A stretch of 64,000 nucleotides of DNA from Planctomycetota bacterium (GCA_044222185.1 JBGANV010000003.1:704001-768000); one strand, 5' to 3'. Positions 31,039 to 52,067 are shown, counted from the first letter of the stretch. Notes: generated by a model from the sequence alone, not told the origin. Program-made: numbers and translations.

Positions 31039-32394
31039 ATGTCACGTCGAATCGCCGTCTGTCTTGCTCTCGCCCTTTCGGTGGTCACCGCTTCCGCGCA
31101 GTTCGCTCACGACCCGGTTTTCGGGATCGCACCCAACTCCCCAGTTCCGCCGTCGGGTACGGGTGGCGGCGCCTGTGGCACGCCACAGAACACTCTGAAC
31201 GTGTCGTTCGTCGGCTCGTTCGTCGGTCTCGTCGGACAGATGAGCGTGACCGTCAACATCGATCACACGTTCGTCGCAGACCTCGTCATCACGCTCACCC
31301 ACGACGGCGTCTCCGTGGTGCTGTCGGACGGCAACAACCTCGCCAACGGAAGCGCGGACCTCCACGGCGCATACGTGTTCGCCGACTTCGCGGCGACCCC
31401 GATCGACGCGGCGTCAGCATCCGCCGGGACGCTCGTGCCGGGCTCCTACCGTCCGGACAACCCGCTTTCGGCATTCGCGTCGACGAGCATGGCTGGGCTC
31501 TGGACTCTGCAGATCTGTGATCGAGCGTCCGCCGACGTCGGCGTCCTCCACTCCGTGTTCATCGACGCCGCGACGCAGGGCACGCAGGTGTCCGACCCGG
31601 CCGTGCCAGCAACGATCCCGCCGTCGGGCACGGGCGGTGGCGCGTGCGGCGCGCCGCAGAACACGTTCACCCACCTGATCAACGTGACCGAGACCGGTCG
31701 CGTCGGCGACGTCGCGGCGTACTTCAACATGACGCACACCTACTCGAGCGACCTCACGATCACGCTCTCGCACTTCGGCGTGACGCGCACGATCTTCAGC
31801 GGCGCGAACGGCACCGGCGGGAACGACTTCAATGGCTTCTACAGCTTCTGGGAGAATCGATTCAGCCTGCTCACCGGCAGCAACGCAGCCGGCGGGACGC
31901 TCACCACCGGCTTCTACCGCAGTCTCCAGGACTTCGCCCCGTTCCACGGCATGGAGATGTCCGGGCCCTGGTACTTGACGATTTGCGACGACGCCGGCGC
32001 CGACACGGGCGTCCTCTCAGCGTTCGAGTTGAGCATCGCACGGCAGGGTTTTGCGATGAACCTCTCCCAGCCGAACGGGTCGGCGGACGTGCGTGCGAAT
32101 GACAGCGCCGGGGCAAGCATCGGCAACGCCTACTTCAACGCCTTCACGCTGAACGGCGGCAACTACCCCTACGGCTGGTTCTACGGGATCGACATCGCGT
32201 ACAGCGATCTCCTCTTCCAGATCAATCTGCCGATCGGGTTCTTCAACGGAACGCTCGACGGGTCCGTCCGCGCCACGTCGACGATCCCCGGCCCGATCCC
32301 TGCCGGTCTGACGGTCTACGGAACGGCGATCGAGATCGAGTCCGGCGCGTTGCGTCAGGTCTCCACTCCGACCGCGCACCAAACCGTCCCGTGA
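31039..32394 (+). CDS. Secreted protein with two proprotein-convertase P-domains and the shared C-terminal domain (paralog 1)
   Basis: Two repeats of V.VNIDHTFVADL.ITL.H...G.W.L.ICD....DVG.L; signal ending TASA|Q; GAAGGAG RBS. Confidence 0.85.
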   Translation: MSRRIAVCLALALSVVTASAQFAHDPVFGIAPNSPVPPSGTGGGACGTPQNTLNVSFVGSFVGLVGQMSVTVNIDHTFVADLVITLTHDGVSVVLSDGNNLANGSADLHGAYVFADFAATPIDAASASAGTLVPGSYRPDNPLSAFASTSMAGLWTLQICDRASADVGVLHSVFIDAATQGTQVSDPAVPATIPPSGTGGGACGAPQNTFTHLINVTETGRVGDVAAYFNMTHTYSSDLTITLSHFGVTRTIFSGANGTGGNDFNGFYSFWENRFSLLTGSNAAGGTLTTGFYRSLQDFAPFHGMEMSGPWYLTICDDAGADTGVLSAFELSIARQGFAMNLSQPNGSADVRANDSAGASIGNAYFNAFTLNGGNYPYGWFYGIDIAYSDLLFQINLPIGFFNGTLDGSVRATSTIPGPIPAGLTVYGTAIEIESGALRQVSTPTAHQTVP

Positions 32395-32551
32395 CCTCGC
32401 GGGTGCTCTCGATCCCCGGCATCGACTCCCGTCGGTCCGGGGATCGCTCGCGTTCGCGGTCCACGACCCCACGCGGATCTCCCGCTTCGCATCCTCCCCG
32501 CGCGCGACCGCAACACACACGCCCGTTCGCATTCGTCCGAAGGAGCCTCCG

Positions 32552-33916
32552 ATGCCGCACCGAACCGCAACCTGTCTTGGCCTCGCCCTGTGTCTCGTCG
32601 TGATGGCGCCCGCCCAGACGGCGCACGGTCCGGCCTTCGGGGCCACACCGAACGCGACGATTCCGCCATCCGGCACCGGGGGCGGCGCCTGCGGCGGGAC
32701 ATCGAACACCTTCGACACGCATGCGACGGCGGCGTTCGCCGGTCTCGTCGGCAGCCTCGTGATCACGGTCGACATCGACCACAGCTATGCCGGCGACGTG
32801 GTCATGACGCTGATCCACGATGGCGTCTCCGTCGTCCTCTCGGACGGAAACAACTTCGCGAGCGGCGGAGGCGCCGACCTTCACGGCGGATACAGCTTCT
32901 CCGACGCGGCACCGACGGCGTTCGACGCGGCGCCCCTCGCACCCGGGGGAAGGCTCGCGGCCGGCACCTATCGGCCCGACAATCCCCTCTCCGCGTTCAC
33001 AGGAGCCGCCGTCGCCGGGATCTGGACGCTCCGCATCTGTGACCGCGCGGCCGGCGACGTCGGCGTGTTGCACTCGACGTTCCTCGACGTCAGAACGCTC
33101 GGCACGCAGGTCAGCGACCCCATCGTCCAGGCGCCGATCCCGCCCTCGGGGACCGGCGGAGGCTCGTGCGGCGCTCCCCCGAACACCTTCACGCACGTCG
33201 TGAACGTCGTGCAGACGGGCCGGGTCGGCGATGTCGCGACATACTTCGACATCACCCATTCCGCGTCGGGTGATCTCACGATCACGCTCAGCCACATGGG
33301 CGTGACGCGCACGATCTTCAGTCCGGCCATTGCCACGGGCGCTCTCGACTTCAACGGGTTCTACAGTTTCTGGGAGAACCGGTTCTCGCCCATCTCGGGC
33401 GCCAATGCGACGAGTGGAGCCCTCAACACGGGCTACTACAGGAGTCTCCAGGACTTCGCCCCGTTCCACGGCATGGAGATGTCGGGCCCCTGGTACCTGA
33501 CGATCTGCGATGGAGGTCCCTTCGACGTCGGCGTGCTGCACGGCTTCGTGCTGAGCATCGCGCGCCAGGGCTTCTCGCTCTCGATTGAGCAGCCCACGGG
33601 ATCGGCGAGCCTCGACGCCGTCGATCGACACGGTGCCGCCACCGGCAATGCCTACTTCAACGTCGTGACGTTGAATGCCGGCAACTACCCCAACGGGTGG
33701 TTCTACGGGATCGACATCGGCTACAGCGATCTCCTGTTCCAGCTCGACCTGCCGATCCCGTTTTTCCATGGAACCCTCGACGCATCGGTGCAGGCCGCGT
33801 CGTCGTTGCCCGGTCCGATCCCAGCCGGCATCCACGCATTCGCCACGGCGATCGAGTTCGAGAACGGGTCATTGCGCCAGGCATCGGCGCCGAGTCAATA
33901 CACCACGCTCCCGTGA
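32552..33916 (+). CDS. Secreted double P-domain protein (paralog 2)
   Basis: Collinear with 31039..32394 over its full length; AAGGAG RBS. Confidence 0.85.
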   Translation: MPHRTATCLGLALCLVVMAPAQTAHGPAFGATPNATIPPSGTGGGACGGTSNTFDTHATAAFAGLVGSLVITVDIDHSYAGDVVMTLIHDGVSVVLSDGNNFASGGGADLHGGYSFSDAAPTAFDAAPLAPGGRLAAGTYRPDNPLSAFTGAAVAGIWTLRICDRAAGDVGVLHSTFLDVRTLGTQVSDPIVQAPIPPSGTGGGSCGAPPNTFTHVVNVVQTGRVGDVATYFDITHSASGDLTITLSHMGVTRTIFSPAIATGALDFNGFYSFWENRFSPISGANATSGALNTGYYRSLQDFAPFHGMEMSGPWYLTICDGGPFDVGVLHGFVLSIARQGFSLSIEQPTGSASLDAVDRHGAATGNAYFNVVTLNAGNYPNGWFYGIDIGYSDLLFQLDLPIPFFHGTLDASVQAASSLPGPIPAGIHAFATAIEFENGSLRQASAPSQYTTLP

Positions 33917-33965
33917 TCGTGCGCGGACACCCGACGTCGTCCGGGTGACGCCACGCACGGGAGCT

Positions 33966-34634
33966 TCACCCGAGTTCGTCAGAGTCGGGACCGACGAGAT
34001 GATCCACGATGGAGGCAGGCAACGTCTGGCGGAGCTTCTCGAGCGCGCGGCGCAACCGCACGGTGACCGTGTTCGGCGCGAGCCCCGTGACGGCTGCGAC
34101 GACCCGAACCGGCTGTTCCTCGATCGCACGGAGCACGACGACGGCACGGTCCGTGGGATCGAGGGATGCGATGGCGGAACGGACGGAGTCGTGGCGCTCG
34201 GCACGGACGGCCCGCGAGACGACACCCGTCGTCTCCGCCGACAGTTCGAGGGCCGCACCGCGTTCCGACCCGCCGTCGACGCCCCGATCCGGCAGGGCGA
34301 TCGCACTCGGCTTCCCTGCGATGTGCTTGTCGTAGAGGTCCCGCACCTGGCGCAGGAGCACGGTCCCGAGGAACCGCATCAGACCGGCGGACGTGCTCCC
34401 GGGTTCGGGACGGTACTCGGGGAGCCGGCGCAGGGCGACCAGCCAGACGTCGTTCACGAGGTCCGTCGGATCCACGAAGCGGCGGAGCGGCGCACCGATC
34501 CGATACTCCGCCTGCATGATCAAAAGGGGCGTGAACCGTTCGACGACCGTCGTCAGATGAGCGAGACTGCCCAGCGACGCGGCGCGGATCACGGCCGAGA
34601 GTTCCCGATCATCCTCGAGGCGGTTTTGAGACAC
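33966..34634 (-). CDS. ECF RNA polymerase sigma factor (kinase-associated type)
   Basis: Region 2 LRRFVDPTDLVNDVW; region 4 AIASLDPTDRAVVVLR...TVTVRLRRALEKLR. Confidence 0.88.
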   Translation of the reverse strand: MSQNRLEDDRELSAVIRAASLGSLAHLTTVVERFTPLLIMQAEYRIGAPLRRFVDPTDLVNDVWLVALRRLPEYRPEPGSTSAGLMRFLGTVLLRQVRDLYDKHIAGKPSAIALPDRGVDGGSERGAALELSAETTGVVSRAVRAERHDSVRSAIASLDPTDRAVVVLRAIEEQPVRVVAAVTGLAPNTVTVRLRRALEKLRQTLPASIVDHLVGPDSDELG

Positions 34635-34684
34635 GGCCGGGAAGTATGCCTCACTTCCGGCGTTTCTGAATAGGATCCTCCCCC

Positions 34685-37243
34685 ATGGACGATCTCAGCT
34701 CCGATCTCGCCATCGAAGTCGCCGTGATGGACGCCATCCTGGACGCGCGGGCGCAGGGACGATCCGTCACCGTCCAGGAGCTCTGCGAACGGTTCCCAGG
34801 GTGCGAGCCCGAGGTTGCCAAGGCGTTCCAGCGCGCGACCGCGCTCGGGTCGACCGACACGGAGATGCCGCGCCACGTCGACGCCGACGCCCCCGTCGCC
34901 AGACACACGCGGGTCGGGCCGTACCGCATCGAGTCGGAACTGGGCCGCGGAGCCCAGGGCGTCGTGTACATGGCGGTCGACGAGCGCCTCGACCGCCGCG
35001 TGGCGCTGAAGATCCTGCTTCCCTCCTGGGCGGCGTCGCCGCGGACGCTCCGCCGATTCGAGAACGAGGCCCGCACGCTCGCCGCCCTGGATCACCCGGG
35101 CATCTGCACGGTTCACGAAGCCGCGACGATCGACGGGACGCCCTTCATCGCCATGCGCCTCGTGGCGGGCGAGTCGCTCGTCGCCCGGATCTCGCACCTT
35201 CGGACGCAGCGCGACGGCGGGCGGCCACTCGCGGCGGACGTGGCGAGTGCGGTCGCGATCATCGAGAAGGTGGCACGCGCGGCCAACGCCGCGCACGAGG
35301 CGGGCGTCATCCACCGGGATCTCAAGCCCGCGAACGTGATCGTGTCCGACGCGGACGAGCCCACCATCCTCGACTTCGGGCTCGCGAGTTCGGCGGAGGA
35401 CGGCGACGGTTCCCTCACGATGAGCGGCGACATCCTCGGGACGCCCGCGTACATGGCACCCGAGCAAGCCGCGGGCAACATGGACGAGGTCGATCGCCGC
35501 GCCGACATCCACGCACTCGGCGTGATCCTCTTCGAGATGACGACGGGACGGCGGCCGTTCGATGCGCCCACGCGGTCCGGCCTGCTCGACGCCGTGTGCA
35601 ACACCGAAGCGCCCGACGCGCGGCGGACGAACCCCGAGGTCGACCGGGACGTGGCGACGGTGATCGCGCGCTGTCTCGCCAAACTTCCGAGCGACCGCTA
35701 CGCCTCCGCGCTCGACCTCGCGGACGACCTTCGACGTGTCCGCCTCCTCGAGCCGATCGCGGCCAGGCCCGTGTCGACTGCCGAGCGCGCGCTGCGCTGG
35801 GTCCGTCGAAACCCGCTGCGGGCGGCCCTGATCACGGTCATCGGCCTGCTTTTCGCCACGCTCATCGCCGGCGGCGCCTGGTACCTCGCCAACCGCGATC
35901 GCCTCGCGAGCCAGGAGGCCGCCGAGCGCCGTGCGCAGGTCGAAGAGGAGCTGGTCGAGGGTTCGACGGCCATGGCTGCGCTGCGCCAGGGTGCCGCCAT
36001 CGCCCACTACGAGGCCGCGCTCCGCCTCGACCCGTCCTCGGTCGAGGCCATCACGGCGCTCGCAATCTGCCTCGTCCGCCGCGGGCACCGGGACGTCGCG
36101 ATCCAACGCCTCGACGAGTTCGGAGGCCGCTTCGGGCGATCCTCGGCATGGTATTCGGCCCGCCGTTTCGCCGGACCCATTCCAAACGATCCCGAACCCC
36201 GTGCCACGAGTCGCCCTGACACCGCGTCGCCGCGTGATGACGTCTCCTGCTTCATCGAATCGATGAAATGCACCGCCGAGAGCGAGATCGGATCGGAGGA
36301 CGGCATCTCGCGCGCCTGCAACTGGCTCGAGGCGGCGATCCAACGGAGCCCGACCCGGCGCCTGCTCTATCTCAACAGCCTCGCGGCGGTCGCCAGCCGC
36401 CTCAACGACCGGACCACGGCGCAGCGCATCGCCGGGACGCTGCGCACCGTGCTCACGGGACCACGCGCCGAGGTACTGGCGGGACTCGCTCTCTGCCGCG
36501 CCGATCCGGACGCAGCGCGCGCAACGTTCGCTCGCGCGGAAGCGCTGGGCGGGAACCAGACGGACATCGGCTACGGGATGTTCACCATCCTCGTGGGCAG
36601 CCGCGACTTCGCCAGCGCCGCCGCACTCATGCGTGACATGCTCGCGCGCCGACCGGACGACGCCACGCTCTACTACAACCTCTCGCTGGCCGAGCTGAAA
36701 CTCGACCACGTCGCGCTGGCACTCGAGGCCGCGCGCCGCGCCGTCGAGCTCCGCCCCGACGTCGCCGCGAACCATGCCCAGGTCGGGATGATCCTGCGCG
36801 ATGGCCTCCAGCAGTTCGCCGCAGCCTCCGTCGAGTTCGAGCGCGCGCTGGCGTGCAGCCCAGCAAACCTCGAGGTCGCGGGCGAGCTGTCGCGCTGCCT
36901 GTCGTTCAAGGGTGACCAGCCGGCCGCGCTTGCGATGGCGCAGCGGGTCATCGACAAGGATCCGCAGAACGTCGTCGCCTGGCGGACGATCGCGCGAGCG
37001 CGCCTGCTTCTCGACGATCCAGAGGCGGGCGAGGCTGCCGCGCGTCACGTCGTCGAGCTCGCTCCGGAGTACGCGATCCACCATTTGGAGCTTGCCCGTG
37101 CCGTCGCGGCGAATGGTGACTTTGAAGGCGCGCGCAAGATCGTCGACGAGTGGTATGAACGGGCCGTCGCTTCGGGGCTCACCAGCTATCTGAACTTCCT
37201 GGAATCGAAATTCCCCGGGCTGGCACCGCCGCGGTCGAAGTGA
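34685..37243 (+). CDS. Ser/Thr protein kinase with TM segment and TPR repeats
   Basis: LGRGAQGVVY, VALK, HRDLKPANV, DFGL, GTPAYMAPEQ; WVRRNP + TM; C-terminal TPR-like helices. Confidence 0.95.
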   Translation: MDDLSSDLAIEVAVMDAILDARAQGRSVTVQELCERFPGCEPEVAKAFQRATALGSTDTEMPRHVDADAPVARHTRVGPYRIESELGRGAQGVVYMAVDERLDRRVALKILLPSWAASPRTLRRFENEARTLAALDHPGICTVHEAATIDGTPFIAMRLVAGESLVARISHLRTQRDGGRPLAADVASAVAIIEKVARAANAAHEAGVIHRDLKPANVIVSDADEPTILDFGLASSAEDGDGSLTMSGDILGTPAYMAPEQAAGNMDEVDRRADIHALGVILFEMTTGRRPFDAPTRSGLLDAVCNTEAPDARRTNPEVDRDVATVIARCLAKLPSDRYASALDLADDLRRVRLLEPIAARPVSTAERALRWVRRNPLRAALITVIGLLFATLIAGGAWYLANRDRLASQEAAERRAQVEEELVEGSTAMAALRQGAAIAHYEAALRLDPSSVEAITALAICLVRRGHRDVAIQRLDEFGGRFGRSSAWYSARRFAGPIPNDPEPRATSRPDTASPRDDVSCFIESMKCTAESEIGSEDGISRACNWLEAAIQRSPTRRLLYLNSLAAVASRLNDRTTAQRIAGTLRTVLTGPRAEVLAGLALCRADPDAARATFARAEALGGNQTDIGYGMFTILVGSRDFASAAALMRDMLARRPDDATLYYNLSLAELKLDHVALALEAARRAVELRPDVAANHAQVGMILRDGLQQFAAASVEFERALACSPANLEVAGELSRCLSFKGDQPAALAMAQRVIDKDPQNVVAWRTIARARLLLDDPEAGEAAARHVVELAPEYAIHHLELARAVAANGDFEGARKIVDEWYERAVASGLTSYLNFLESKFPGLAPPRSK

Positions 37244-38214: not shown

Positions 38215-41046
38215 ATGCGAGGAGCCGGCGTGCGTGCGATCCAGATTCTCTTCATGTTCACCTGCGGATCATGTCTCATCGCCCAGACCTGCATTCCCGG
38301 ATGGGGGCCAGGCTGCACGACCCTCGGAGGGATCCAAGGCGGTGTGACGGCATACACCGAGTACGACGCCGACGGCCCCGGGCCGGCGCCGAAGCTCCCC
38401 GTCATCGGTGGCAGTTTTGGGGTCGCAATCGGTGACGCCGAGGGCGCCAACTGGCGAATCATCCTCGTGCCGTCCTCGGCCGGTGGGGTGACAGCCCTGG
38501 CAACGCATGACTTCGATGGCCCTGGGCCAGGCCCGGTGGAGATCGTGGCCGCGGGCCGCGCCGGGACCTTCGTTTCCCAATACGCGGCGCCATTGGGTCG
38601 TTGGAATGGCACGACCTGGTCTACTTTCGGCACGGACCTGACTGGCTGGACCTACCCTGCACCGGTTACGCGAATGATCGAGTGGGACATGGACGGCGCG
38701 GGCCCCGGGCCCGCGGAGCTGATCATGGGCGGGGGATTCACCGCGCCCTCGATGCCGCCTGCATTCGGCGTCGCGCGATATGGCGGAAGTTGGAGCGCGC
38801 TCTCGCCGCTGGGATCCGGCGGAACGCCGAGACACACCAGTGTCGACGCGTTGATGGTGTGGGATGACGACGGCAACGGCCCCAATCCCCCGGCCCTCGT
38901 CATAGGATCCCACAGCAGCCTTAGAGGGACGACATCGTCGAGCCTGGTCCGCTGGGATGGACTGACGTCGACGCCGCTCGGTCAGGGGTTCAACGGAGCG
39001 GTACTCGACCTCGCCGTGTTCGATGACGACGGCCCGGGCCCTCACGTGCCGGCGCTCTTTGCCAGCGGATCGTTCACCCTCGCCGGTGGCGTCTCGGCGC
39101 CGCGCGTTGCGCGATGGAACGGTTCGGCCTGGAGCGCGACCGGCTTCGGCGTTGGCAGCGCCGTGAGGACGATCACACCTTTCGATCTCGACGGCCCGGG
39201 CCCGCTCGGGGAACGACTCATAGCGGGCGGAGAGTTCACGACGGCCAACGGAGCGAACGTCGGCAACGTGGCGAGCTTTGATGGAACGAACTGGATCCCC
39301 GTCTCGTTCGGCCTGGGCGTCGGCGGCGGCGCCACACCCATTCCAACCGTCGCGAAACTCGCTTCGCTCGATGCGGACGGAGCCGGGCCGGGAGAGCCAC
39401 GCCTCCTGGCGTTCGGGAACTTCGTGTCGGCCGATGGGGCGCCAGCAAATTCGGTCGCGATCTGGGACCGCGTTGCGTGGAGACCCACCGGACACGGATT
39501 CGTCCTACCGCCGCGCGCCATGGCGGTGTTCGACGCCGACGGCCCGGGTGCCGCTCCGGCGACGCTGTACCTCGCTGCTCCGCCTGTACAACTCACGACT
39601 ATGGCGGTCAGCCCCGTCCGCGCCTGGACCGGGAGCGCGCTTTACACCGTACCGTCCCCCGCGCTCATGACCGTGAACGACCTGATAGTGGGTGACCCTG
39701 ACGGCCCGGGACCGCTCCCCAACCGTCTGATCGCTGGCGGAGCGCCGACCCTGTTCGCAGCACCCGTGACGACCTTCGACGGGACCGCTTGGACGCAGCT
39801 TCCACCGCTCCCGGCGATACCGCCGTACACCGGCGTGAGGGCCATGACGTTCTTCGACGACGACGGACCCGGACCAAGCGCCCCGAAACTCGTAGCCGCC
39901 GACGACGGACACGTTGCGCGGTTCGATGGCGTCGCGTGGAGCCCTGTCGGAGTCCTCGGATCGTCCTACGGTGCTGTCCGAGCGATCGCGGCTTTCGACG
40001 ACGACGGCGCGGGGCCGAGGACCCCGGCGCTGTATCTCGGTGGTTCGTTCTCGACGCTGGCCGGCGCACCGTCGGGCGGGATCTCGCGGTGGAACGGGTA
40101 CTCCTGGGTGCCCATCGGGGTGCCCGCCGGAGTGAGCACGGCCGGCGGCGCGTTCAGCTCCGTGAATGCGCTGCTCGAATACGACCCGGACGGCGCGGGA
40201 CCACGGCCTGGGCTGCTCGTCGTCGGCGGCGATTTCGACACGGCTGGCGGAGTCCCCGCACTGGGAATCGCCGCGTGGAACGGATCCGGGTGGTCCGCAG
40301 CGTTCGGCTCCGGAGTCGTGCGTGGGAATCTCCCCGGAACGGTCTCGGCGATGGCGGTCGCCGACCTCGACGGGAACCCAGGAACACCCGACGAGCTCGT
40401 CGTCGCAGGCTCGTTCACGAGTGTCAGCGGGATTGCCGCCGAATCGATCGCCCACTGGAACGGGACGTCCTGGGCGCCGTTCGGCGGCGGCATCACTGCG
40501 CTCGGCAACTCGGTCCATTTCGCTTTTCAGCCTGCGGCGCCACCCGGCATCGCCGACCTCGCAATGTTCGACGAGGACGGGAGCGGCGGCGGCAGCGCGG
40601 CAGCCGCACTGCATGTATGCGGCCAATTCCTGACGGCCGGCGGAGTGTCGGCACCGCTCCATGCGCGCTGGGGAACGGCGCCGGGCTTGAGTCTCTCTCT
40701 GACCCGCGCGGGCCCGAACGCACCACTGCTCTTCACCGATTCCGCATGCGCCGGTCTGGACACCTGGTTCAACGCCATGAGTCTGGACCCGATGAACGCG
40801 GCATACCCGAACACCGGCCCCTGGTTTGGCCTGCACATCGGTCCCACGGATCTCCTGGGGCAGTTCCAGTCCGGCGTCGCACCGTTCCGAGGCACGCTGA
40901 ATGCGATAGGCAATTCCGTGACGTCGGCACCCGCATCGACTCTGATCCCCTACTCGGGCGTGAGGGTCTGGAGTGTGGGCGTCCGCTTCGACGCACCGAG
41001 CCTGACGGTGCATGGAGTATCGCCGGTGACGTCGATTCAGCTCTAG
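38215..41046 (+). CDS. Secreted 14-repeat DxDG beta-propeller protein with the shared C-terminal domain (paralog 1)
   Basis: 14 copies of [FWY]DxDGxGP...L..GG.F...ARW[ND]G..W; GGAGGAG RBS before ATG 38215. Confidence 0.85.
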   Translation: MRGAGVRAIQILFMFTCGSCLIAQTCIPGWGPGCTTLGGIQGGVTAYTEYDADGPGPAPKLPVIGGSFGVAIGDAEGANWRIILVPSSAGGVTALATHDFDGPGPGPVEIVAAGRAGTFVSQYAAPLGRWNGTTWSTFGTDLTGWTYPAPVTRMIEWDMDGAGPGPAELIMGGGFTAPSMPPAFGVARYGGSWSALSPLGSGGTPRHTSVDALMVWDDDGNGPNPPALVIGSHSSLRGTTSSSLVRWDGLTSTPLGQGFNGAVLDLAVFDDDGPGPHVPALFASGSFTLAGGVSAPRVARWNGSAWSATGFGVGSAVRTITPFDLDGPGPLGERLIAGGEFTTANGANVGNVASFDGTNWIPVSFGLGVGGGATPIPTVAKLASLDADGAGPGEPRLLAFGNFVSADGAPANSVAIWDRVAWRPTGHGFVLPPRAMAVFDADGPGAAPATLYLAAPPVQLTTMAVSPVRAWTGSALYTVPSPALMTVNDLIVGDPDGPGPLPNRLIAGGAPTLFAAPVTTFDGTAWTQLPPLPAIPPYTGVRAMTFFDDDGPGPSAPKLVAADDGHVARFDGVAWSPVGVLGSSYGAVRAIAAFDDDGAGPRTPALYLGGSFSTLAGAPSGGISRWNGYSWVPIGVPAGVSTAGGAFSSVNALLEYDPDGAGPRPGLLVVGGDFDTAGGVPALGIAAWNGSGWSAAFGSGVVRGNLPGTVSAMAVADLDGNPGTPDELVVAGSFTSVSGIAAESIAHWNGTSWAPFGGGITALGNSVHFAFQPAAPPGIADLAMFDEDGSGGGSAAAALHVCGQFLTAGGVSAPLHARWGTAPGLSLSLTRAGPNAPLLFTDSACAGLDTWFNAMSLDPMNAAYPNTGPWFGLHIGPTDLLGQFQSGVAPFRGTLNAIGNSVTSAPASTLIPYSGVRVWSVGVRFDAPSLTVHGVSPVTSIQL

Positions 41047-41144: not shown

Positions 41145-44048
41145 ATGAATAGCCAAGGCTGCGTGAGTCACGGTCCGCCTTCGACCGAGGAACCGAATGA
41201 CCGGAAACTCCCTGCAGATCCGAGACGCCGCGGATCGTGCATGCTCGCCGGGCTGGTGTGCCTGATCGTGCATACGGCCGTTGCGCAGACGTGCGCTCCG
41301 GGCTGGGCGACTGGGCCGGGGACACTCGGTGGCGTCGGCGGCACCGTGTACACGTCGACGACCTGGGATCCCGACGGACCCGGACCCACGGTCCCAATCC
41401 CCGTCTTGGGAGGAGGCTTCGGCGTCGCATTTGGTTCCCCCTCCGGCAACAGCTGGTATCTGAATGGTCCAGTGCACCAGGCCAACGTGTCGGCGTTCGC
41501 GTGCGTCGACTTCGACGGGCCTGGACCGGCACCATGCGAGCTGGTGGCCGCCGGGTGGTTCGTCGACCCCGCCGTTGGATCAGCGCCGCTCGCCCGATGG
41601 GACGGAACGCGATGGCTCCTCTTCGGCGCTGATCTCATCACCCCAACGCCTACGTCGTTCGCAGACATCAATGGCCTGTGCGCGTGGGACCCCGACGGCA
41701 GCGGCCCGGGCACCGAGGTGCTCATCGTCGCCGGAGATTTCATCGCGCCGTGCACTCCGCCCGGGTTCGGAGTCGCAGCGTACTCGGGCGCCTGGGCGCC
41801 GCTGTCACCAAATGCCAGCGGTGGCACCACGCAAGGGACAGTCGGGATGGCGGTCGCGACGTGGGACGACGACGGCACCGGCCCGCACGCGCCCGGCCTC
41901 GTGCTGTCCGAAACGAACCCCTTCACGATCCCCAACACGAACCGCGTGACGTTCTGGTTGGCCGGACAATCGACCGTTCTTGCAGGCGCATTCAATGCCG
42001 CGGTGCAGACCTTCGCGGCGTTCGACGAGGACGGAATCGGTCCGCAGCCGCCACGACTCTTCGCCGCGGGTACGTTCGCGGGCGTGAACGGCCAGTTAGT
42101 GCCTGGATTCGCGCGCTGGAACGGGGCGAATTGGGGCACGCCACCAGCCGGCCCGTCGCCCACGACGGGGGTTGCGTGCATGCTGGCATTCGACCTCGAC
42201 GGTCCGGGGCCGCTACCCGAGCAGCTGGTTGTGGGAGGACGAGCCACCGCGGCGAACGGAGGTTTGACGGTCAGCACCACCGCGCTCGGGCCGTCGGGCT
42301 GGACGTCCGTCGGATCGGGGTTCGGCTCGGCCGGTCCAGGCTCAACACCGGGATCCGTGAATACCCTCGTGTCCATCGACATCGACGGGATAGGGCCGGC
42401 GGCGCCCCGTCTGCTTGCGGCCGGTGCATTCGACGACGTGAACGGTCACCACGGCCAATCCGTCGCGATCTGGGGGACGGGCACATGGGGAACGACGGGC
42501 ACGGGTCCGAACACTCCACCGAACGCACTATCGGTCTTCGATCCGGACGGCACAGGCCCAGGCCCATCGAAGCTCTACATCTCCTCCCCGCCGCTGACGA
42601 CGTTCGGCAACTTTCCAACCGACATCCTCGCCTGGGATGGAAGCTCGTTTCAGTCACTGTCAGCGACGCCCACGGGGCTCATCCACGATCTGCTGAACGC
42701 GGACATCGACGGGCCGGGTCCGATTCCAGCCCGGCTGTATGCCTCGGGACGGTTTGGCTCCAGTCCCTTGCCTCAGTTCCAACACGTAGTCGAGGCATTC
42801 GACGGAACGACGTGGACGCCGCTGCCGACGTCGACCACCACGTTGTGCCGCGCCATGACGATGTATGACGACGATGGACCGGGGCCCAACCCCGCGAGAC
42901 TGACCACGGCCGGAACGGGCACGCCCGCGTCTTACGACGGATCCAGCTGGACACCTCTGGGCGTGACTGGCCCGAACGGAACGATCAACACGCTCAGCGC
43001 GTTCGACGACGACGGCCCCGGCCCGGGTCTGCCCCTGCTCTATGCTGCCGGGGGATTCACGAACATTGCAGGGCTCACCACCAACTCCATCATGCGGTGG
43101 AACGGTTTTTACTGGTGGACAGTTGGCGCCGGCCTGTTCGTCAATCCCGGCGGCGGCGTTCCCGGGACCGCGAACGCCATGGTCGATTACGACCCCGACG
43201 GGCCCGGCCCGCTGCCACACATGCTCGTCGTCGGGGGAGTATTCGGGGGTGCGGGAAGCCTCGCGGCCATCGGGATTGCCGCGTGGAATGGCACCGCCTG
43301 GTCGAACGCCTTCGGTAACGTGATGCAGGCCAACGGCAACTACGGAACGATCTCCGCTCTCGCGGTCGTCGACTTGGATTCGAATCCCACGACGCCTGGA
43401 GAACTCGTGGCCACCGGCGACTTCATCTCGATCGGGGGTGTCGCCGCGGCGTCGATCGCGCATTGGGATGGGTTCAATTGGTCCGCATTCGGATCGGGGC
43501 TCGGCGGCGCCACTGCAGCGCCCTATTTCCCATATCAACAGATCCTGCTCCCCGGCGGCAACGACATCGCGGTCTACGACGAGGATGGAACCGGAGCCGG
43601 CAACCCGGGCATGTATGTTTCGGGCGTATTCGTGACGGCCGGTGGTCATGCCTCCACGTATCTCGCGCGCTGGGGCGTCGACCCGAGCACGAGCCTCTCT
43701 CTTGCGACGGCGGGCCCGGGAACGGCACTGTCGATCATGACGTCGGCGTGCGTCGGGTTCTCGCACGCCTTCACGGCCTTCAGTCTGGATCCGAGCAACG
43801 CCCTGAGCCCAGGCACGGGACCCTGGTTCGGGCTCCACATCAGCGTGAACGACCTCGTCGCGCAGTATCAGTTCGCGAGTCCGCCGTTCGTCGGGACGCT
43901 CGACGCGTTCGGCCTCTCATCTTCCGTCGTTCCTGCTGCCACGATCGCACCGCTGGTCGGGCAGAACCTCTTCGCCGTAAGCGTCCTCTACGATCCCTCC
44001 ACTCTGACGGCCTTCGGCGTTTCTCCGGTGGCCTTCGTCCAACTGTGA
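41145..44048 (+). CDS. Secreted 14-repeat DxDG beta-propeller protein (paralog 2)
   Basis: Collinear with paralog 1 (QTC.PGW..G.GTLGG...); GAGGAG RBS; alternative start at 41241. Confidence 0.85.
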   Translation: MNSQGCVSHGPPSTEEPNDRKLPADPRRRGSCMLAGLVCLIVHTAVAQTCAPGWATGPGTLGGVGGTVYTSTTWDPDGPGPTVPIPVLGGGFGVAFGSPSGNSWYLNGPVHQANVSAFACVDFDGPGPAPCELVAAGWFVDPAVGSAPLARWDGTRWLLFGADLITPTPTSFADINGLCAWDPDGSGPGTEVLIVAGDFIAPCTPPGFGVAAYSGAWAPLSPNASGGTTQGTVGMAVATWDDDGTGPHAPGLVLSETNPFTIPNTNRVTFWLAGQSTVLAGAFNAAVQTFAAFDEDGIGPQPPRLFAAGTFAGVNGQLVPGFARWNGANWGTPPAGPSPTTGVACMLAFDLDGPGPLPEQLVVGGRATAANGGLTVSTTALGPSGWTSVGSGFGSAGPGSTPGSVNTLVSIDIDGIGPAAPRLLAAGAFDDVNGHHGQSVAIWGTGTWGTTGTGPNTPPNALSVFDPDGTGPGPSKLYISSPPLTTFGNFPTDILAWDGSSFQSLSATPTGLIHDLLNADIDGPGPIPARLYASGRFGSSPLPQFQHVVEAFDGTTWTPLPTSTTTLCRAMTMYDDDGPGPNPARLTTAGTGTPASYDGSSWTPLGVTGPNGTINTLSAFDDDGPGPGLPLLYAAGGFTNIAGLTTNSIMRWNGFYWWTVGAGLFVNPGGGVPGTANAMVDYDPDGPGPLPHMLVVGGVFGGAGSLAAIGIAAWNGTAWSNAFGNVMQANGNYGTISALAVVDLDSNPTTPGELVATGDFISIGGVAAASIAHWDGFNWSAFGSGLGGATAAPYFPYQQILLPGGNDIAVYDEDGTGAGNPGMYVSGVFVTAGGHASTYLARWGVDPSTSLSLATAGPGTALSIMTSACVGFSHAFTAFSLDPSNALSPGTGPWFGLHISVNDLVAQYQFASPPFVGTLDAFGLSSSVVPAATIAPLVGQNLFAVSVLYDPSTLTAFGVSPVAFVQL

Positions 44049-46040: not shown

Positions 46041-46049
46041 CGTCGTCGG

Positions 46050-46832
46050 TCAGAGGAAGGGGTTGGGACGCCAGAGCGATGGGAGTCCGACGCGAACCCC
46101 ATCCATCAGGTGTCGGATGCACTCGAAGTACTTGGACGCGTTGGTGCGCACGAGCTCGAGCGTGCGCACGAGGTCGAACATCCACACGGGCACGTGGCGC
46201 GTGAACTTCAGCTCGATGAGGACGCCCGCGGGAAACCCGGCGACTTCGAGCCCGGTGTCGAGGTACTGCCAGTTGCCTGGCTCGCCACGGAGGTCGAAGC
46301 CGCAAGCCGGCTGGAACCGAACGCCTCGATCGAAGGTCAGTCGCGCGTAGTCACCGAAGGCGCTCTCGTAGGCTTCGCGCTCATAACGGATCAGCACCTT
46401 CGGCTCGGCACCGTGCCGTACGGCCTTGTGCTGAAAGTCGGCGAGATGGATGGCGTTTTCGCCGCCCGCGTCGGGATCGATCACGCCTCTCACCCGGGCG
46501 TCATATTCGGCGCGCGGACATCGACCGCGAGTCTTGACGACGACGTCTTTCAGCTTGCGCTTGACTTCGAAGAAGATCGGGCCGTCGGCATCGGCCCCGT
46601 AGGTTCGCACGCGCAGCTTGTACCGATCCATCGAACCGGCCGCCTGGCGGTGCCACAACGCGAAATCCGGTGAATCGAGGTAGAGGTTCGTGATCGTGTA
46701 GGCCCCTTCGTCGCGCGTGCCGGCCTCGGCGTCGTGCACCACGTAGGGCGCAATGAAGCGCCGGATTCGATCGACCCGGCTCTCGGGCACGAAGTACTTG
46801 TATTCGAAGCGCTCGAAGCGGACGGATGTCAT
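46050..46832 (-). CDS. VTC-domain (polyphosphate polymerase) protein, copy 2
   Basis: RFEYKY, ITNLYLDS, RYKLRVRTY, FEVKRK, YEREAY, RLTFD, IELKF, SKY. Confidence 0.92.
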   Translation of the reverse strand: MTSVRFERFEYKYFVPESRVDRIRRFIAPYVVHDAEAGTRDEGAYTITNLYLDSPDFALWHRQAAGSMDRYKLRVRTYGADADGPIFFEVKRKLKDVVVKTRGRCPRAEYDARVRGVIDPDAGGENAIHLADFQHKAVRHGAEPKVLIRYEREAYESAFGDYARLTFDRGVRFQPACGFDLRGEPGNWQYLDTGLEVAGFPAGVLIELKFTRHVPVWMFDLVRTLELVRTNASKYFECIRHLMDGVRVGLPSLWRPNPFL

Positions 46833-47229: not shown

Positions 47230-47281
47230 GTCGCCCTCGAGTTCGCGTCGATGGCGAACTCGCACATGCGTGGAGAGCGAC

Positions 47282-48019: not shown

Positions 48020-48020
48020 G

Positions 48021-49010
48021 ATGGCGATGGACGAGAGCCCGCTCGCACGGCTTCGGCGGCTCGAGGGCGAGAGTACGCTGAACCGCGCCCCACCCCGGCC
48101 CCCGGGCAGCGGCGCACCTGGGCCCGGGCCGAGCCGGAGGAAGGGCGGCGTGCTCGGCGGGATCGGCGCCGTCATCCTCATCGTCCTCGTCAAGAGCAAG
48201 ACCCTGCTCCTGCTGCTGGTGACGAAAGGCAGCGCGATCCTCTCACTGCTCAAGGTGGGGAAGCTCTTCGCCACGCTGGCGACGATGGGCATCTCCATCG
48301 TCTACTACACGGAGCGCTGGGGCGCGAAGTTCGCCGCGGGATTCGTCGGCCTCATCCTCGTCCACGAACTCGGCCACGGTGCCGCCGCCAAGATCGTGGG
48401 ACTGCGCGTCGGGGCGCCGATCTTCATCCCGGGCTTCGGAGCGTTCATCTCGCTCAAGGAGCAGGTGCGTTCCACGTGGCAGAACTTCGTGATCGGGTAC
48501 GGCGGGCCGCTCGCCGGGACCCTGGGCGGCACGCTCGTGCTCGCCGCCGGGATGATGTCCGGCGATGACGAGGTCGTGAGTTTCACGCGCGCGCTCGCCG
48601 AGCTCACGTTCATCATCAACCTGTTCAATCTCCTGCCGGTCTTTCACCTGGACGGCGACCGCATCTCCGAGCCTTTGAAGACGCGCCACTGGATCACGGG
48701 GCTCGCGGCGACGTCCGTGATCGTGCTGCTGCAAGGCGCCCCAGCCGCGGACTCCGAGCGAGGCCATCCGGAGTTCGGGTTCGTCCTCCTCATCCTGATC
48801 CTGGGGGTGGTGAAGGCGATCCTCGTGCATCGCCGCGCCTCACATCCGGCGACGGTCCGGCTCGTCGATCGACTGAACGAGGCGGCTCCGGCACCGCTGC
48901 TGGAGGAAGCGACGGTCAGCGACCAACAGCGGACGATCGCCGCGCTGTCCTACTTCGGGCTCGTCGTACTGCTCTCGGCGCTCGCGCGAGCCGCAGCGCC
49001 GTACGTGTGA
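48021..49010 (+). CDS. Site-2 protease (M50 family)
   Basis: LVHELGH, FIPGFGA, GGPLAG, NLFNLLPVFHLDG. Confidence 0.92.
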   Translation: MAMDESPLARLRRLEGESTLNRAPPRPPGSGAPGPGPSRRKGGVLGGIGAVILIVLVKSKTLLLLLVTKGSAILSLLKVGKLFATLATMGISIVYYTERWGAKFAAGFVGLILVHELGHGAAAKIVGLRVGAPIFIPGFGAFISLKEQVRSTWQNFVIGYGGPLAGTLGGTLVLAAGMMSGDDEVVSFTRALAELTFIINLFNLLPVFHLDGDRISEPLKTRHWITGLAATSVIVLLQGAPAADSERGHPEFGFVLLILILGVVKAILVHRRASHPATVRLVDRLNEAAPAPLLEEATVSDQQRTIAALSYFGLVVLLSALARAAAPYV

Positions 49011-49065
49011 CGTCAGACCCTGCGGATGCGCGCTTTGGGTCCTGCCCGATCGACGCGCAGTCGCG

Positions 49066-50517
49066 TCACTTCAACGCCTCGAAGAGCGCGCGTGCAGCCT
49101 CGCGAGCGACGAAGCGGTTGCCGGCCGGCGTGAGATGAACGCCGTCGCTCGTGAGCACACCCGCGGCGGCATCCTTCGCGTTGAAGACGCGCAGGTGATC
49201 CTGGAACGCGCGGCGGAGGTCGCAGACGTGGAGGTGGCGCTCCGCGGCCACACGGCGCGTGATCGCGGCATAGGTGTCGAGCGCCGCATCCAGGTCGTTC
49301 GTGCCCGCACGTTTCTCGCCGATCACCGACGGGGTGGCGAGGATCGGGACGGCGCCCGAGGCTTCGAGCCTCGAAACCAGGTCGCGCAGTCCAGACTCGA
49401 ACTCGTTCTCGGGAGTGCCCCGGCCCTGTAGCCGATGCCACACGTCGTTGATTCCGATGTAGACGAACACGACCGTGGCCCCGCGGTCGATGACGTCGTG
49501 CTGGACACGCGCAAGCAGGTTGGGCACGCGGTTGCCGCTCACGCCGGCTCCGATGACCTGGACGCCGAGGTCCGCATGCGCAGCGAAGGCCTCGGAGATC
49601 AGCGTGACGTATCCGCCGGGCCCGGCGCCGCTCTCGGTGATCGAATCGCCGAGGAATGCGATCTTCGCGCCCTTCTTCACGGGAGAGTGCGCGCCGGTGA
49701 GGAGCCCGAGCGCGCGCGCCACTCCCCCGTCTTCAGGCCGCCGCTGTCCGAACATCCACGGGATCACCCCGCCCTCGCCGTAGGCCTGACGCCACGAGTC
49801 GTGCCCGACGCTTGGAAGCTCCGTCAACCGCGCATCGCCGCCGGCGGCGTGGATCGCATCGACCATCTGACGCGAGCGCACGGGCCAGACGGTCTTGTCG
49901 TCCGAGCCGTGGAACGTCCACAGCGGCACGCCGACGAGCCGATGCGCCAGACGTTCATCGCCACCACCGCAGATCGGAGCGACGGCCGCGAACCACTCGG
50001 GATGACGGACCGCCAGATCCCACGAACCGAACCCGCCCATGCTCAATCCCGTGAGGTACACGCGGTCGAGGTCCACCGGGTTCTCGGCGATCGTGCGGGA
50101 GAGGCACTCGAGCGCGAGTTGCATGGGGAAGCTCGGCTCGGACGGCGCTGGCGTCGACACCTTCGCGTCCCAGGGAACGTCGACCCACTGCCGTCCCAAC
50201 GGACATTGAGGTGCGAGCACGAAGCACGGCCAATCGCGCCGCGCCTTCTCGCTGAGGAGCGGGCCTTTGATGTGAGTCAACGCCAGATCGGGGTCCGAGC
50301 CCCGCTCGCCCGCTCCATGCAGGAACATCACGAGGGGGTACCGACGGTTCGGTTCCAGCGCTGCGGGCGAAATCAGCACGTACGGGAACGTCTCACCGGC
50401 ATGCGGTCCGGCCTTCAACTGGATCGTGCGGCGTGACTCGGGCACCTGGGCCCGCGCGCGCATGGAAACCATGGCCATCGCCAGAAACGCGACCGCGAAC
50501 AGAGGGAGCAGGCGCAT
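49066..50517 (-). CDS. Secreted bifunctional alpha/beta-hydrolase esterase + SGNH/GDSL hydrolase
   Basis: FLHGAGERG, GLSMGG, FHGSDD, GHDSW; second domain FLGDSIT, GVSGN, IGIND, DGVH. Confidence 0.9.
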   Translation of the reverse strand: MRLLPLFAVAFLAMAMVSMRARAQVPESRRTIQLKAGPHAGETFPYVLISPAALEPNRRYPLVMFLHGAGERGSDPDLALTHIKGPLLSEKARRDWPCFVLAPQCPLGRQWVDVPWDAKVSTPAPSEPSFPMQLALECLSRTIAENPVDLDRVYLTGLSMGGFGSWDLAVRHPEWFAAVAPICGGGDERLAHRLVGVPLWTFHGSDDKTVWPVRSRQMVDAIHAAGGDARLTELPSVGHDSWRQAYGEGGVIPWMFGQRRPEDGGVARALGLLTGAHSPVKKGAKIAFLGDSITESGAGPGGYVTLISEAFAAHADLGVQVIGAGVSGNRVPNLLARVQHDVIDRGATVVFVYIGINDVWHRLQGRGTPENEFESGLRDLVSRLEASGAVPILATPSVIGEKRAGTNDLDAALDTYAAITRRVAAERHLHVCDLRRAFQDHLRVFNAKDAAAGVLTSDGVHLTPAGNRFVAREAARALFEALK

Positions 50518-50584
50518 GGCGTCCTCCTGGGTGGGGTGCGCCGACGACGGGGGGCAGGCGCCTTCCGCACACCCTCAAACAGCC

Positions 50585-50625
50585 GCGGGTTGATGCCGGC
50601 GCGGATCCGCGCGACACCAACCCGC
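50585..50625 (-). terminator. Hairpin immediately downstream of the tRNA
   Basis: GCGGGTTG...CAACCCGC arms enclosing the palindrome GCGCGGATCCGCGC. Confidence 0.45.
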
Positions 50626-50630
50626 TGAGA

Positions 50631-50703
50631 TAGCGGCGACAGGACTCGAACCTGTGACCCGGGGCTTATGAATCCCCTGCTCTACCAACTGAGCTACGCC
50701 GCC
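50631..50703 (-). tRNA. tRNA-Met(CAT), probably elongator; CCA not encoded
   Basis: Reverse complement GGCGGCGTAGCTCAGTTGGTAGAGCAGGGGATTCATAAGCCCCGGGTCACAGGTTCGAGTCCTGTCGCCGCTA folds as a cloverleaf. Confidence 0.95.
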
Positions 50704-50884
50704 GTTGTGTTGTCATCCCCCGACCTGCCGGTCATCCGGCCGCAGCGGGGACAGCGTTGTACGGCTCGACCCGACGAGCCTCAACCGATCGCGTGAGGGA
50801 TGTTCGCGGCCGCAGGACACGAAATCGAAACGATCGCCGGGGCGCGACATAAGTTCTCACGAGGTCGGATCGATATACAAAAAG

Positions 50885-51056
50885 CACGAGCTGCGGCCAA
50901 CCCGGCCCCCCCGGGATGCGACCGCGGCGGACCTCGATCAGCCTTCTCCATCGACACGCAACTGACTTCCCTTCCCTCCTCCGCCTGAACCCAAGATCGA
51001 GGTCTCATTCTTCCGGGCGCCCCCGACGCGACGTCGGTGGCGCCCGTCTTTTTTTC
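50885..51056 (+). ncRNA. Candidate small RNA or attenuator leader
   Basis: Three consecutive stem-loops ending in an intrinsic terminator, with no credible CDS upstream on this strand. Confidence 0.45.
51014..51055 (+). terminator. Rho-independent terminator
   Basis: CGGGCGCC-CCCGACG-CGA-CGTCGGT-GGCGCCCG stem followed by TCTTTTTTT. Confidence 0.8.
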
Positions 51057-51200
51057 TCCGCGTGCGTGCGAGTCAACGCCCGCGTCCGGGGAGAAAACTG
51101 GCGGTCGCCACGCGCGAAGATTGCGCCGCGTCCTCGCGATGGGGACCTGTAGGATCGCCACCGTTCGCCACGTCACCGAGCGACCTGAGGAAGTCACCCC

Positions 51201-52067
51201 ATGAGAATCGCATCGATCGGCACGCTGATGTGCCTCGTCATTTCAGCCCCCGCGCAGCAGGTCTGGCTGCCGAGCTCAGGCGGCAACGGCCACACCTACG
51301 AGGTCCGCGTCGTCCAGGGAGGCATCAGCTGGCTCGCCGCCTCGACGGACGCCATCGCGCGCAACGGGCACCTCGTGACGATCACGAGCGCGGCCGAGAG
51401 CGCCTTCGTCCTCTCGCTCGTGAACACACCGACCTGCTGGGTACCGAACCCGTACGGCTACAGCTTCGGACCGTGGATCGGCGCCTATCAGCTGCCCGGC
51501 TCCGTCGAGCCGAACGGCGGCTGGGTGTGGGTGACCGGCGAGCCCATGGTCTACACCAACTGGCTGCCCGGGCAGCCGAACAATTCGTGTGCGCCAGGCG
51601 AGGATCACGCGCACTTCATGGAGAACACGTACCCGGCGCGCGGGAACTCCTGGAACGACCTCGCCCCGGCTTCCTGCGGGATGCCGAGCGCCTACGTCGT
51701 CGAGTGGGACGTGAGCCTCGTCGTCGACCAGCCCCAAGGGCCCGGCACGCCCATCATCGTCACGAACCACGACCTGAACCTGGGAAGCGAGTACTTCAAC
51801 GTGTTCAGCACCGACGTGTGCGCGGGCACGGGAGCAGGGCCGTACCTGGGACTGTGCGCCAGCGGGGGCGCGGGACTTCAGCTCATTGCGCTGCAGGTCC
51901 TCGCGCCGCTGAGCACGCCGCCGTTCCACGTCCTGGCGACGTCGCCGTCGGCGTCATGGCCAGCCGTACCCAACGTCCCGCCGATCACGATCCAGGGCGT
52001 CTGCTTCGAGGTCGTCGGGGGCTCGATCGGTGAGACGTCCCGCGTCGTCACGTTCACCGTCTTCTGA
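51201..52067 (+). CDS. Secreted C-type lectin domain protein with the shared C-terminal domain
   Basis: GNGHTYE...ISW..A...GHLVTITSAAE...WIG...WVWVTGE...YTNW.PGQPNN...WND...YVVEW. Confidence 0.9.
   Translation: MRIASIGTLMCLVISAPAQQVWLPSSGGNGHTYEVRVVQGGISWLAASTDAIARNGHLVTITSAAESAFVLSLVNTPTCWVPNPYGYSFGPWIGAYQLPGSVEPNGGWVWVTGEPMVYTNWLPGQPNNSCAPGEDHAHFMENTYPARGNSWNDLAPASCGMPSAYVVEWDVSLVVDQPQGPGTPIIVTNHDLNLGSEYFNVFSTDVCAGTGAGPYLGLCASGGAGLQLIALQVLAPLSTPPFHVLATSPSASWPAVPNVPPITIQGVCFEVVGGSIGETSRVVTFTVF

Follow-up and report, generated by a model that had tools for sequence, protein, structure and literature searches.

A C-terminal domain shared by five exported proteins

The 64,000-nucleotide (nt) stretch of a Planctomycetota bacterium genome analyzed here (GCA_044222185.1, JBGANV010000003.1:704001–768000; the whole stretch is called the window below) carries five genes whose exported products end in the same domain of approximately 115 amino acids (aa), which we call the tail. 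Two of these genes encode proteins with proprotein-convertase P-domains, two encode propeller-like proteins, and one encodes a C-type lectin (Table 1). An earlier reading of the DNA (the sequence-only reading) had proposed that alignable sequence closes all five proteins and that it is a lineage-specific tag for the secretion or surface attachment of three unrelated types of cargo. All five open reading frames (ORFs) were present, the tails lay within about 15 nt of the positions first proposed, and the Pfam assignments agreed that the three cargo types are unrelated. A Sec-type signal peptide was visible in the translation at the N-terminus of each protein, also as proposed; that of the first P-domain protein is MSRRIAVCLALALSVVTASA, followed by Q. 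In the first propeller gene, the longest ORF starts at GTG 38089 and encodes 985 aa, and the version starting at ATG 38215 encodes 943 aa, which is the length of the entry in the protein collection; the start that suits a signal peptide best is found 45 codons inside the stop-to-stop frame.

No Pfam or NCBIfam model covered the final ~115 residues of any of the five proteins. BLASTP identity was 64% between the tails of the two P-domain proteins and 50% between those of the two propeller-like proteins. In pairwise BLASTP comparisons of 130-aa tails, the E-values between P-domain and propeller tails were 1e-9 to 8e-5. The lectin tail, which falls in a separate tail clade from the other four, matched these with E-values of 6e-5 to 0.025. 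In a leave-out test, a hidden Markov model (HMM) built from 65 tails of the same genome outside the window (Z = 61,510 six-frame ORFs) scored all five window proteins at E-values of 2.6e-20 to 8.9e-26, each with a C-terminal envelope, and none of the 5 reversed or 100 tail-shuffled controls was matched at E ≤ 10. The similarity is thus significant beyond the paralogue pairs, with the lectin included, confirming that one homologous domain terminates all five window proteins.

Table 1. Tail-bearing genes of the window, their tails, and other features. Positions are counted from the first nucleotide of the window.
Feature	Position	Strand	Evidence and remarks
Exported P-domain protein 1, 451 aa	31039..32394	+	ORF; signal peptide, two proprotein-convertase P-domains (PF01483, E 8.7e-14), tail
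Tail copy 1, 115 aa, ends at stop codon	32047..32391	+	Leave-out HMM E 8e-24, envelope 338–450 of 451; row 2 of the 70-tail alignment
Exported P-domain paralogue 2, 454 aa	32552..33916	+	ORF, Pfam; signal peptide, two P-domains, tail
Tail copy 2	33569..33913	+	Leave-out HMM E 8.9e-26, envelope 341–453 of 454
Propeller-like exported protein, DxDGxGP repeats, 943 aa	38215..41046	+	ORF, Pfam; likely start ATG 38215
Tail copy 3 (modelled copy)	40699..41043	+	Leave-out HMM E 2.6e-20, envelope 866–985 of 985
Propeller-like exported paralogue, 967 aa	41145..44048	+	ORF; N-terminus also given as 41241
Tail copy 4	43701..44045	+	Leave-out HMM E 1.7e-21, envelope 849–967 of 967
Exported C-type lectin with tail, 288 aa	51201..52067	+	Lectin_C PF00059, E 6.9e-7
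Tail copy 5, Cys-containing subfamily (GPYLGLC...PFH)	51720..52064	+	Leave-out HMM E 1.7e-21, envelope 171–288 of 288
CarboxypepD_reg-repeat protein (context, upstream of first tail gene)	28790..30979	+	PF13620, E 1.7e-43
ECF-type sigma factor (context, between tail-gene pairs)	33966..34634	-	Sigma70_r4_2, E 1e-10
TPR-containing Ser/Thr protein kinase (context)	34685..37243	+	Pkinase, E 4e-39
ORF, 215 aa	37372-38019	+	Good codon-position GC pattern, no Pfam match
HlyD-family protein	44152-45357		Pfam
VTC-domain protein, beside DUF4956 membrane protein	45354-46832	-	Pfam (PF09359, E 2.7e-37)
ORF, 249 aa	47270-48019	+	Good codon-position GC pattern, no Pfam match
M50 peptidase	48021-49010		Pfam
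Esterase/GDSL lipase fusion	49066-50517		Pfam

Copies, position, and export signals across the genome

The sequence-only reading anticipated many further copies, always C-terminal and on proteins with a signal peptide, and this is what the source genome (7.08 Mb in 16 contigs, 93.8% complete) contained. An HMM of the five window tails matched 50 six-frame ORFs at E ≤ 1e-4 and converged at 70 on iteration; a looser profile search counted 81 matches at E ≤ 0.001. Each of the 70 ORFs carried a single domain, always C-terminal, which ended 9–23 residues before the stop codon with the shorter first profile. With the 117-position profile of the alignment of all 70 tails (alignment A1), the envelope ended 0–7 residues from the C-terminus in all 60 called tail genes. 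The last residue was mostly Q, L, or P. Conservation in A1 was low, with two nearly invariant glycines and a mean column identity of 28%, and no conserved boundary or cleavage motif was found upstream of the tail in the 70 sequences. The tail genes are clustered, with five in the 64-kb window, and 18 of the 60 called genes have another within two genes.

A crude rule based on hydrophobicity and charge recognized a Sec-like signal peptide in 61 of the 70 tail ORFs, and several of the nine misses still resemble leaders lacking K/R. A transmembrane (TM)-like window later in the sequence occurred in only three of the 70 proteins. The tails themselves contain no TM-like segment of note, in keeping with the lack of a TM anchor that had been read from the five window proteins: the highest 18-aa hydropathy among the 70 tails was 2.01 and the median was 1.42, and only three reached the marginal value of 1.8.

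In 55 of 56 signal peptides of tail proteins across the genome, including those of the window genes 31039, 32552, 38215, 41145/41241, and 51201, the motif [AGS]-Q directly followed the hydrophobic core; the motif was present in 591 of 1249 (47%) other signal-peptide-like genes and in 261 of 2248 (12%) cases in a no-signal control window. These numbers come from a simple motif tally, and an earlier cleavage-site heuristic, which chose sites in the h-region, was discarded. The pattern resembles the 'Q-rule' (Gln at +1, pyroglutamate). That rule was described as Bacteroidetes-specific by its authors, and Planctomycetes are not mentioned in the available text of the article (PMC5837995). The genome had no match to the model of type I glutaminyl cyclase (PF05096), in a search that did not extend to the M28-like type II.

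Predicted fold and search for relatives

The AlphaFold2 model of tail copy 3, calculated with the 70-row alignment, had a predicted local distance difference test score (pLDDT) of 93.9 and a predicted template modelling score (pTM) of 0.84. It shows a β-sandwich with about eight strands (including residues 10–14, 22–28, 64–66, 73–77, 89–98, 103–107, and 111–114) and three short helices (residues 32–35, 49–58, and 79–85). According to this confident model, the tail has an immunoglobulin (Ig)/fibronectin type III (FN3)-like β-sandwich fold with no specific relative in the PDB. Foldseek returned nothing at E ≤ 1e-3, its best match being a putative carbohydrate-binding protein (E 0.037), and the top matches of an exhaustive structure search (VIA) were FN3 domains with Z of up to 7.1, which is the background level. 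No C-terminal domain (CTD) belonging to the type IX secretion system (T9SS) was among the structure matches listed, the best of which were FN3 domains at a background Z of ~7. A sequence-profile search of the PDB gave a weak, repeat-driven match to the Ig-like repeats of the ice-binding adhesin 4p99 (E 2.2e-5), with no single stretch passing.

Sequence databases were similarly silent. None of the 70 tails had a meaningful Pfam or NCBIfam match, the best being unrelated singletons with E-values of 0.017–0.45. For PEP-CTERM and the rest of the short '-CTERM' sorting signals (substrates of exosortase, rhombosortase, and sortase), there was neither an NCBIfam -CTERM match nor a TM-like stretch in the 70 tails, and the T9SS type B CTD (TIGR04131/CHU_C) had no match among them in NCBIfam or Pfam. 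The neighbours in the ESM Atlas were clusters of 'hypothetical protein' without a Pfam family, mostly from Planctomycetota, and ten representatives in a cluster look-up were named 'hypothetical protein' or had no name. A word-indexed search for longer proteins yielded 21 matches named 'hypothetical protein' or 'trimeric autotransporter adhesin', in which only the cargo had Pfam domains. No description of the domain was found in the literature, supplements, which may hold domain lists, not being covered. The sequence-only reading was therefore right to leave the domain unnamed: Pfam, NCBIfam, the PDB profile search, and a profile comparison with T9SS CTDs (see below) all failed to connect it with a characterized domain. 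The tail family is statistically solid, absent from domain databases, and undescribed.

The generic fold, the background-level FN3 matches, the carbohydrate-binding protein at the top of the Foldseek result, the weak match to adhesin repeats, and the low conservation would all fit an ordinary structural or ligand-binding Ig-like module (one that binds carbohydrate or protein, for instance) or spacer, which would play no part in sorting and came to lie at the C-terminus through duplication and shuffling. However, binding modules and spacers normally vary in position and occur in tandem, whereas the tail is single and terminal in 70 of 70 ORFs and has joined at least 23 clusters of cargo, yet always at the extreme C-terminus. 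We consider an ordinary module of this kind unlikely.

Cargo and modularity of the tail

In a Pfam analysis of the 70 full-length proteins, the cargo was of an extracellular kind, and its most frequent domains were FG-GAP (10), the Rax2-like propeller (10), the lamin-tail domain (LTD; 10), Ig_3 (7), astacin (7), and the P-domain (6). HYR (3), RCC1 (2), subtilase (2), C-type lectin (2), β-helix (2), and Peptidase_C25 (1) were rarer, and GBD_T9SS_assoc (2) and the CHU_C-associated Ig_7 (1) were also detected. The cargo parts formed 23 BLAST clusters, the largest of which (35 members) was inflated through common repeats.

The relationships among the tails did not follow those of the cargo. For 26 of the 70 tails, the nearest tail was located on a different cargo cluster; tails with 73% and 67% identity were found on unrelated cargo; and the two lectins of the genome bear tails of different clades in a tail tree built with a quick method. 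Because nearest tails and near-identical tails are found on unrelated cargo clusters, the tail is a mobile module, which always ends up at the C-terminus.

The presence of the tail at the C-terminus of secreted proteins, some of which are peptidases (the astacin, subtilase, and C25 proteins listed above), would also be expected of a C-terminal propeptide or intramolecular chaperone (PPC-like) that helps the cargo to fold or holds it inactive in the periplasm and is removed after secretion. However, most of the cargo is non-enzymatic (propellers, LTD, Ig, and lectins), near-identical tails occur on unrelated cargo, unlike a cargo-specific chaperone, and no tail matched PPC or any other Pfam family, which makes a propeptide improbable.

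Elsewhere in the source genome (G000:C1:1288117-1291767), a FG-GAP/ASPIC-like lipoprotein that has a lipobox Cys but lacks the tail is encoded directly upstream of a tail-bearing paralogue with a leader for signal peptidase I (SPase I). A lipoprotein gene adjoining a tail gene was also seen in genome G010 of the same order. The pair in the source genome looks like two alternative ways to fix similar cargo.

Distribution

The tail is restricted mainly to one planctomycete order. In a search of 30 relatives, all 22 genomes from the same order, which span four families, had 5–46 matches, and none of the eight genomes of other orders had any. In an even sample of 251 genomes across the phylum, with only 18 candidates scored per genome, matches were found in 13 of the 13 in-order genomes (the source genome included) and in 6 of the 238 others, which belonged to two families and had one to four mostly weak matches each. 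In G177, one of these out-of-order genomes, both matches again lay at the C-terminal end. The lineage specificity claimed from the window alone therefore holds, the domain being essentially confined to one order (22 of 22 in-order genomes against 6 of 238 others).

Among 1.84 billion cluster representatives, 1302 matched the tail at E ≤ 1e-3, and E ≤ 1e-10 was reached by 941. In 150 of 153 stored sequences of this library, the match ended no more than 5 residues from the C-terminus, and in one further sequence, no more than 15; this terminal position speaks against an ordinary module as well. Two Arg/Pro-rich metagenome proteins, P0006 and P0150, were the sole apparent cases of an internal copy. 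They have the look of wrong-frame read-through and are probably frameshift or gene-calling errors.

Comparison with known C-terminal modules

The homologues of the cargo in other lineages provide the main clue to the function of the tail. Five of five propeller relatives from Chlorobiaceae, Anaerophaga, Ignavibacteriaceae, a Bacteroidetes metagenome-assembled genome (MAG), and an organism titled only 'bacterium' end in a T9SS type A CTD scoring over the cut-off. In four Phycisphaerae MAGs, the propeller relatives have a GC-type dockerin (NF041540) end, with two scoring over the cut-off, one scoring below it, and one that is dockerin-like by eye without a model match. One P-domain relative also bears PF18962, a model of the T9SS type A CTD. 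In this small sample of related genomes, homologous cargo thus carries one of three unrelated C-terminal modules by lineage, two of which are annotated sorting or anchoring domains. It is mainly because homologous cargo elsewhere ends in these annotated modules that we read the tail as a localization device, and this alternation is a further argument against an ordinary binding module or spacer.

The T9SS type A CTD (Por_Secre_tail, TIGR04183/PF18962), found in Bacteroidota and other members of the Fibrobacteres–Chlorobi–Bacteroidetes (FCB) group, resembles the tail in that it occurs as a single copy at the extreme C-terminus of unrelated, Sec-exported cargo, with tens of copies per genome. 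Its fold, like that predicted for the tail, is a small Ig-like β-sandwich, and it occupies the same position on the homologues of the propeller and P-domain proteins. Solved T9SS CTDs are described in the accessible text of PMC11285876 as seven-stranded 3+4 β-sandwiches. However, the two modules show no sequence or profile similarity, and the tail, with ~115 aa, is longer than the 72-position model of the CTD and has three predicted short helices. An HHalign comparison of A1 with 25 natural T9SS CTDs aligned 24 columns with a probability of 0.8%. The CTD belongs to FCB phyla, whereas the tail is found in Planctomycetota, in a genome without SprA or T9SS CTDs: the source genome (93.8% complete), like two Phycisphaerales MAGs, had no match to TIGR04183 or to the SprA model (TIGR04189), whereas two Bacteroidota genomes that served as controls contained SprA and gave 44 and at least 150 TIGR04183 matches; PorV, PorU, and GldKLMN were not searched for. 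The possibility that the tail is a highly diverged T9SS CTD using a cryptic T9SS, which its size class, fold class, and position recall only in a general way, is close to refuted by these results, together with the absence of any match of the 70 tails to TIGR04183, TIGR04131, or another NCBIfam or Pfam model.

The GC-type dockerin ('GC-type dockerin domain-anchored protein' in NCBIfam) is also highly multiplied and lies at the C-terminus of the same propeller cargo in sister lineages. It differs from the tail in consisting of a duplicated Ca-binding-type repeat of ~67 positions that ends in GC, rather than a 115-aa β-sandwich, and NF041540 matched none of the 70 tails. No paper was found on the phrase itself, and the function of the domain rests on its NCBIfam name. 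The dockerin model had no match in the source genome or in 21 of the 22 same-order genomes, and two on one contig in the remaining genome; it had at least 150, 82, and 15 matches in three of five named Phycisphaerae MAGs, none of which contained the tail. The distributions of the tail and the dockerin were therefore complementary in the genomes searched.

A 'planctosome', a hypothetical cohesin/dockerin model with assembly proposed at the outer membrane, has been put forward for the Phycisphaerae family Nemodlikiaceae in the available text of PMC6461901. According to the same text, its signal-peptide proteins share a cargo vocabulary with the tail proteins, comprising LTD, proprotein-convertase P-domains, HYR, and metallopeptidases. 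The planctosome uses cohesin and dockerin, whereas the tail genome has neither a Pfam cohesin nor a GC-type dockerin and has the new tail instead. A further comparison is offered by the sulfatase Amuc0953 of Akkermansia muciniphila, a surface enzyme with an Ig-like, T9SS-CTD-like CTD, for which the authors suggest, in the portion of the article available, that a comparable export system may exist (PMC13524802). Akkermansia is likewise a member of the Planctomycetes–Verrucomicrobia–Chlamydiae (PVC) superphylum without a described T9SS, as far as the same portion goes, but it belongs to Verrucomicrobiota, and the report concerns a single protein, which can be set beside the tail by its description only. 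No Amuc0953-type chain was matched when the A1 profile was compared with PDB sequences, from which the CTD may be absent if it was not part of the deposited construct.

Neighbouring genes and the search for a machinery

Between the two pairs of tail genes in the window lie genes for an extracytoplasmic function (ECF)-type sigma factor and a Ser/Thr protein kinase with tetratricopeptide repeats (TPRs), and a CarboxypepD_reg-repeat protein is encoded upstream of the first (Table 1). Comparable neighbours recurred throughout the genome. Within four genes of the 60 called tail genes, there were 29 Ser/Thr kinases (13.3 expected), 7 ECF sigma factors (2.4 expected), and 7 sigma–CarboxypepD_reg fusions related to the family of the window protein (2.3 expected). 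DUF7948 giants, an HDOD protein, and three families without a Pfam match were also recurrent. These counts suggest that the tail-bearing surface proteins are under dedicated ECF/kinase control. The VTC, DUF4956, HlyD, M50, and lipase genes between the tail genes of the window are ordinary-looking. The 215-aa ORF lies directly upstream of the propeller pair.

These surroundings bear on the possibility that this order exports proteins through an undescribed outer-membrane system for which the tail is the cargo signal, recognized in the periplasm by a dedicated translocon and perhaps then cleaved off, an anchor taking its place. The tail is deployed like a T9SS CTD, with one strictly C-terminal copy per protein and 5–81 copies per genome, on Sec substrates whose cargo is diverse; the predicted fold is an Ig-like sandwich; homologous cargo has a T9SS CTD where the tail would be; and several cargo families (Peptidase_C25, GBD_T9SS_assoc, and the CHU_C-associated Ig_7) are typical of T9SS substrates. 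The T9SS-CTD-like domain and the 'comparable system' reported for Akkermansia in the available text of PMC13524802 point in the same direction for another PVC bacterium. However, the search gave no candidate for a translocon or sortase, the SprA model being silent in the genome and positive in the two Bacteroidota controls; no conserved boundary or cleavage motif precedes the tail; and the C25 peptidase with a tail differs from the C25 that is conserved in the order, which lacks one. An export signal of this kind is, in our view, possible but doubtful.

The C25 peptidases were considered as candidates for a sortase. PorU is a C25-family peptidase. The idea that the tail-bearing C25 peptidase is a PorU-like sortase was rejected: in the three genomes compared (G009, G010, and G003), the conserved C25 of the order has no tail and is only 21–23% identical to the tail-bearing one of the source genome. 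PF01364 matched in 19 of the 22 same-order genomes, mostly in one ORF of ~890–950 aa. A single-copy Peptidase_C25 of ~890 aa with a signal peptide and no tail is present in most of these genomes (for example, L133:7599-10289, L134:6840-9506, and L135:7596-10280).

Possible role of the tail

The tail is real, strictly C-terminal, carried by exported proteins, modular, restricted by lineage, and absent from domain databases. The sequence-only reading took it for a tag, and its tag-like deployment is borne out by these properties. That the tail serves localization, in secretion or attachment, we infer mainly from the homologous cargo that bears a T9SS CTD or else a GC-type dockerin in other lineages, and that it anchors rather than translocates is a guess. 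The explanation that we tentatively favour over the others, although with less than even confidence, is that the tail is a lineage-specific handle for anchoring or assembling Sec-exported proteins at the cell surface. The precursor would cross the inner membrane via Sec, and its leader would be cut off by SPase I, usually leaving Gln at +1. The protein would then fold in the periplasm and reach the cell surface, where the folded tail would act as a common handle, holding or assembling the cargo by binding a shared receptor, which may be a protein or an envelope glycan. The tail would thus be the functional counterpart of the GC-type dockerin on the same cargo in the sister Phycisphaerae lineages. 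The complementary distribution of the dockerin, the cargo vocabulary in common with the planctosome, and the lipoprotein encoded beside a tail-bearing paralogue also speak for this explanation.

Several points weigh against this proposal. Localization, binding, and cleavage of the tail are all judged from sequence analysis. No conserved binding site is evident in the tail, since only two glycines are nearly invariant and the mean column identity is 28%. The swap of the tail for other modules would be just as compatible with a secretion signal, which is what the T9SS CTD is, and the evidence separates an anchoring handle poorly from a T9SS-like export signal. No gene for a receptor or machinery was found, the enriched neighbours being regulators only, and there was no shared non-cargo neighbour at the four tail loci of the few-copy genome G010 or at the two loci of the out-of-order genome G177. 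The Pfam cohesin model had no match in the source genome, and none in two same-order genomes or two dockerin-rich MAGs. The complementarity of the tail and the dockerin was observed in few, related genomes.

A bolder proposal joins export and attachment. The tail may be the address label of an undescribed system performing both at the outer membrane, which would have arisen independently in the PVC superphylum as an analogue of type IX secretion and would have a translocon of its own and an enzyme that processes the tail. The GC-type dockerin system of the sister lineages would be a parallel case, as perhaps would the Akkermansia CTD. We regard this as rather unlikely.

Implications for planctomycete cell surfaces

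We know of essentially no account of the route by which planctomycetes bring folded proteins across or onto their outer membrane. The tail marks ~1.5% of the genes of the source genome, including those for adhesin-like propellers, lectins, and proteases, and for an entire uncultured order it yields at once a list of the proteins that are likely to be secreted or located at the surface. An HMM of the tail family would improve the annotation of these genomes. The tail is also an experimental handle, through reporter fusions, receptor pull-downs, and phylogenetic profiling for the machinery. Because lineages differ in whether this cargo ends in a T9SS CTD, a GC-type dockerin, or the tail, the sequence comparisons suggest that C-terminal address modules may be interchangeable across phyla.

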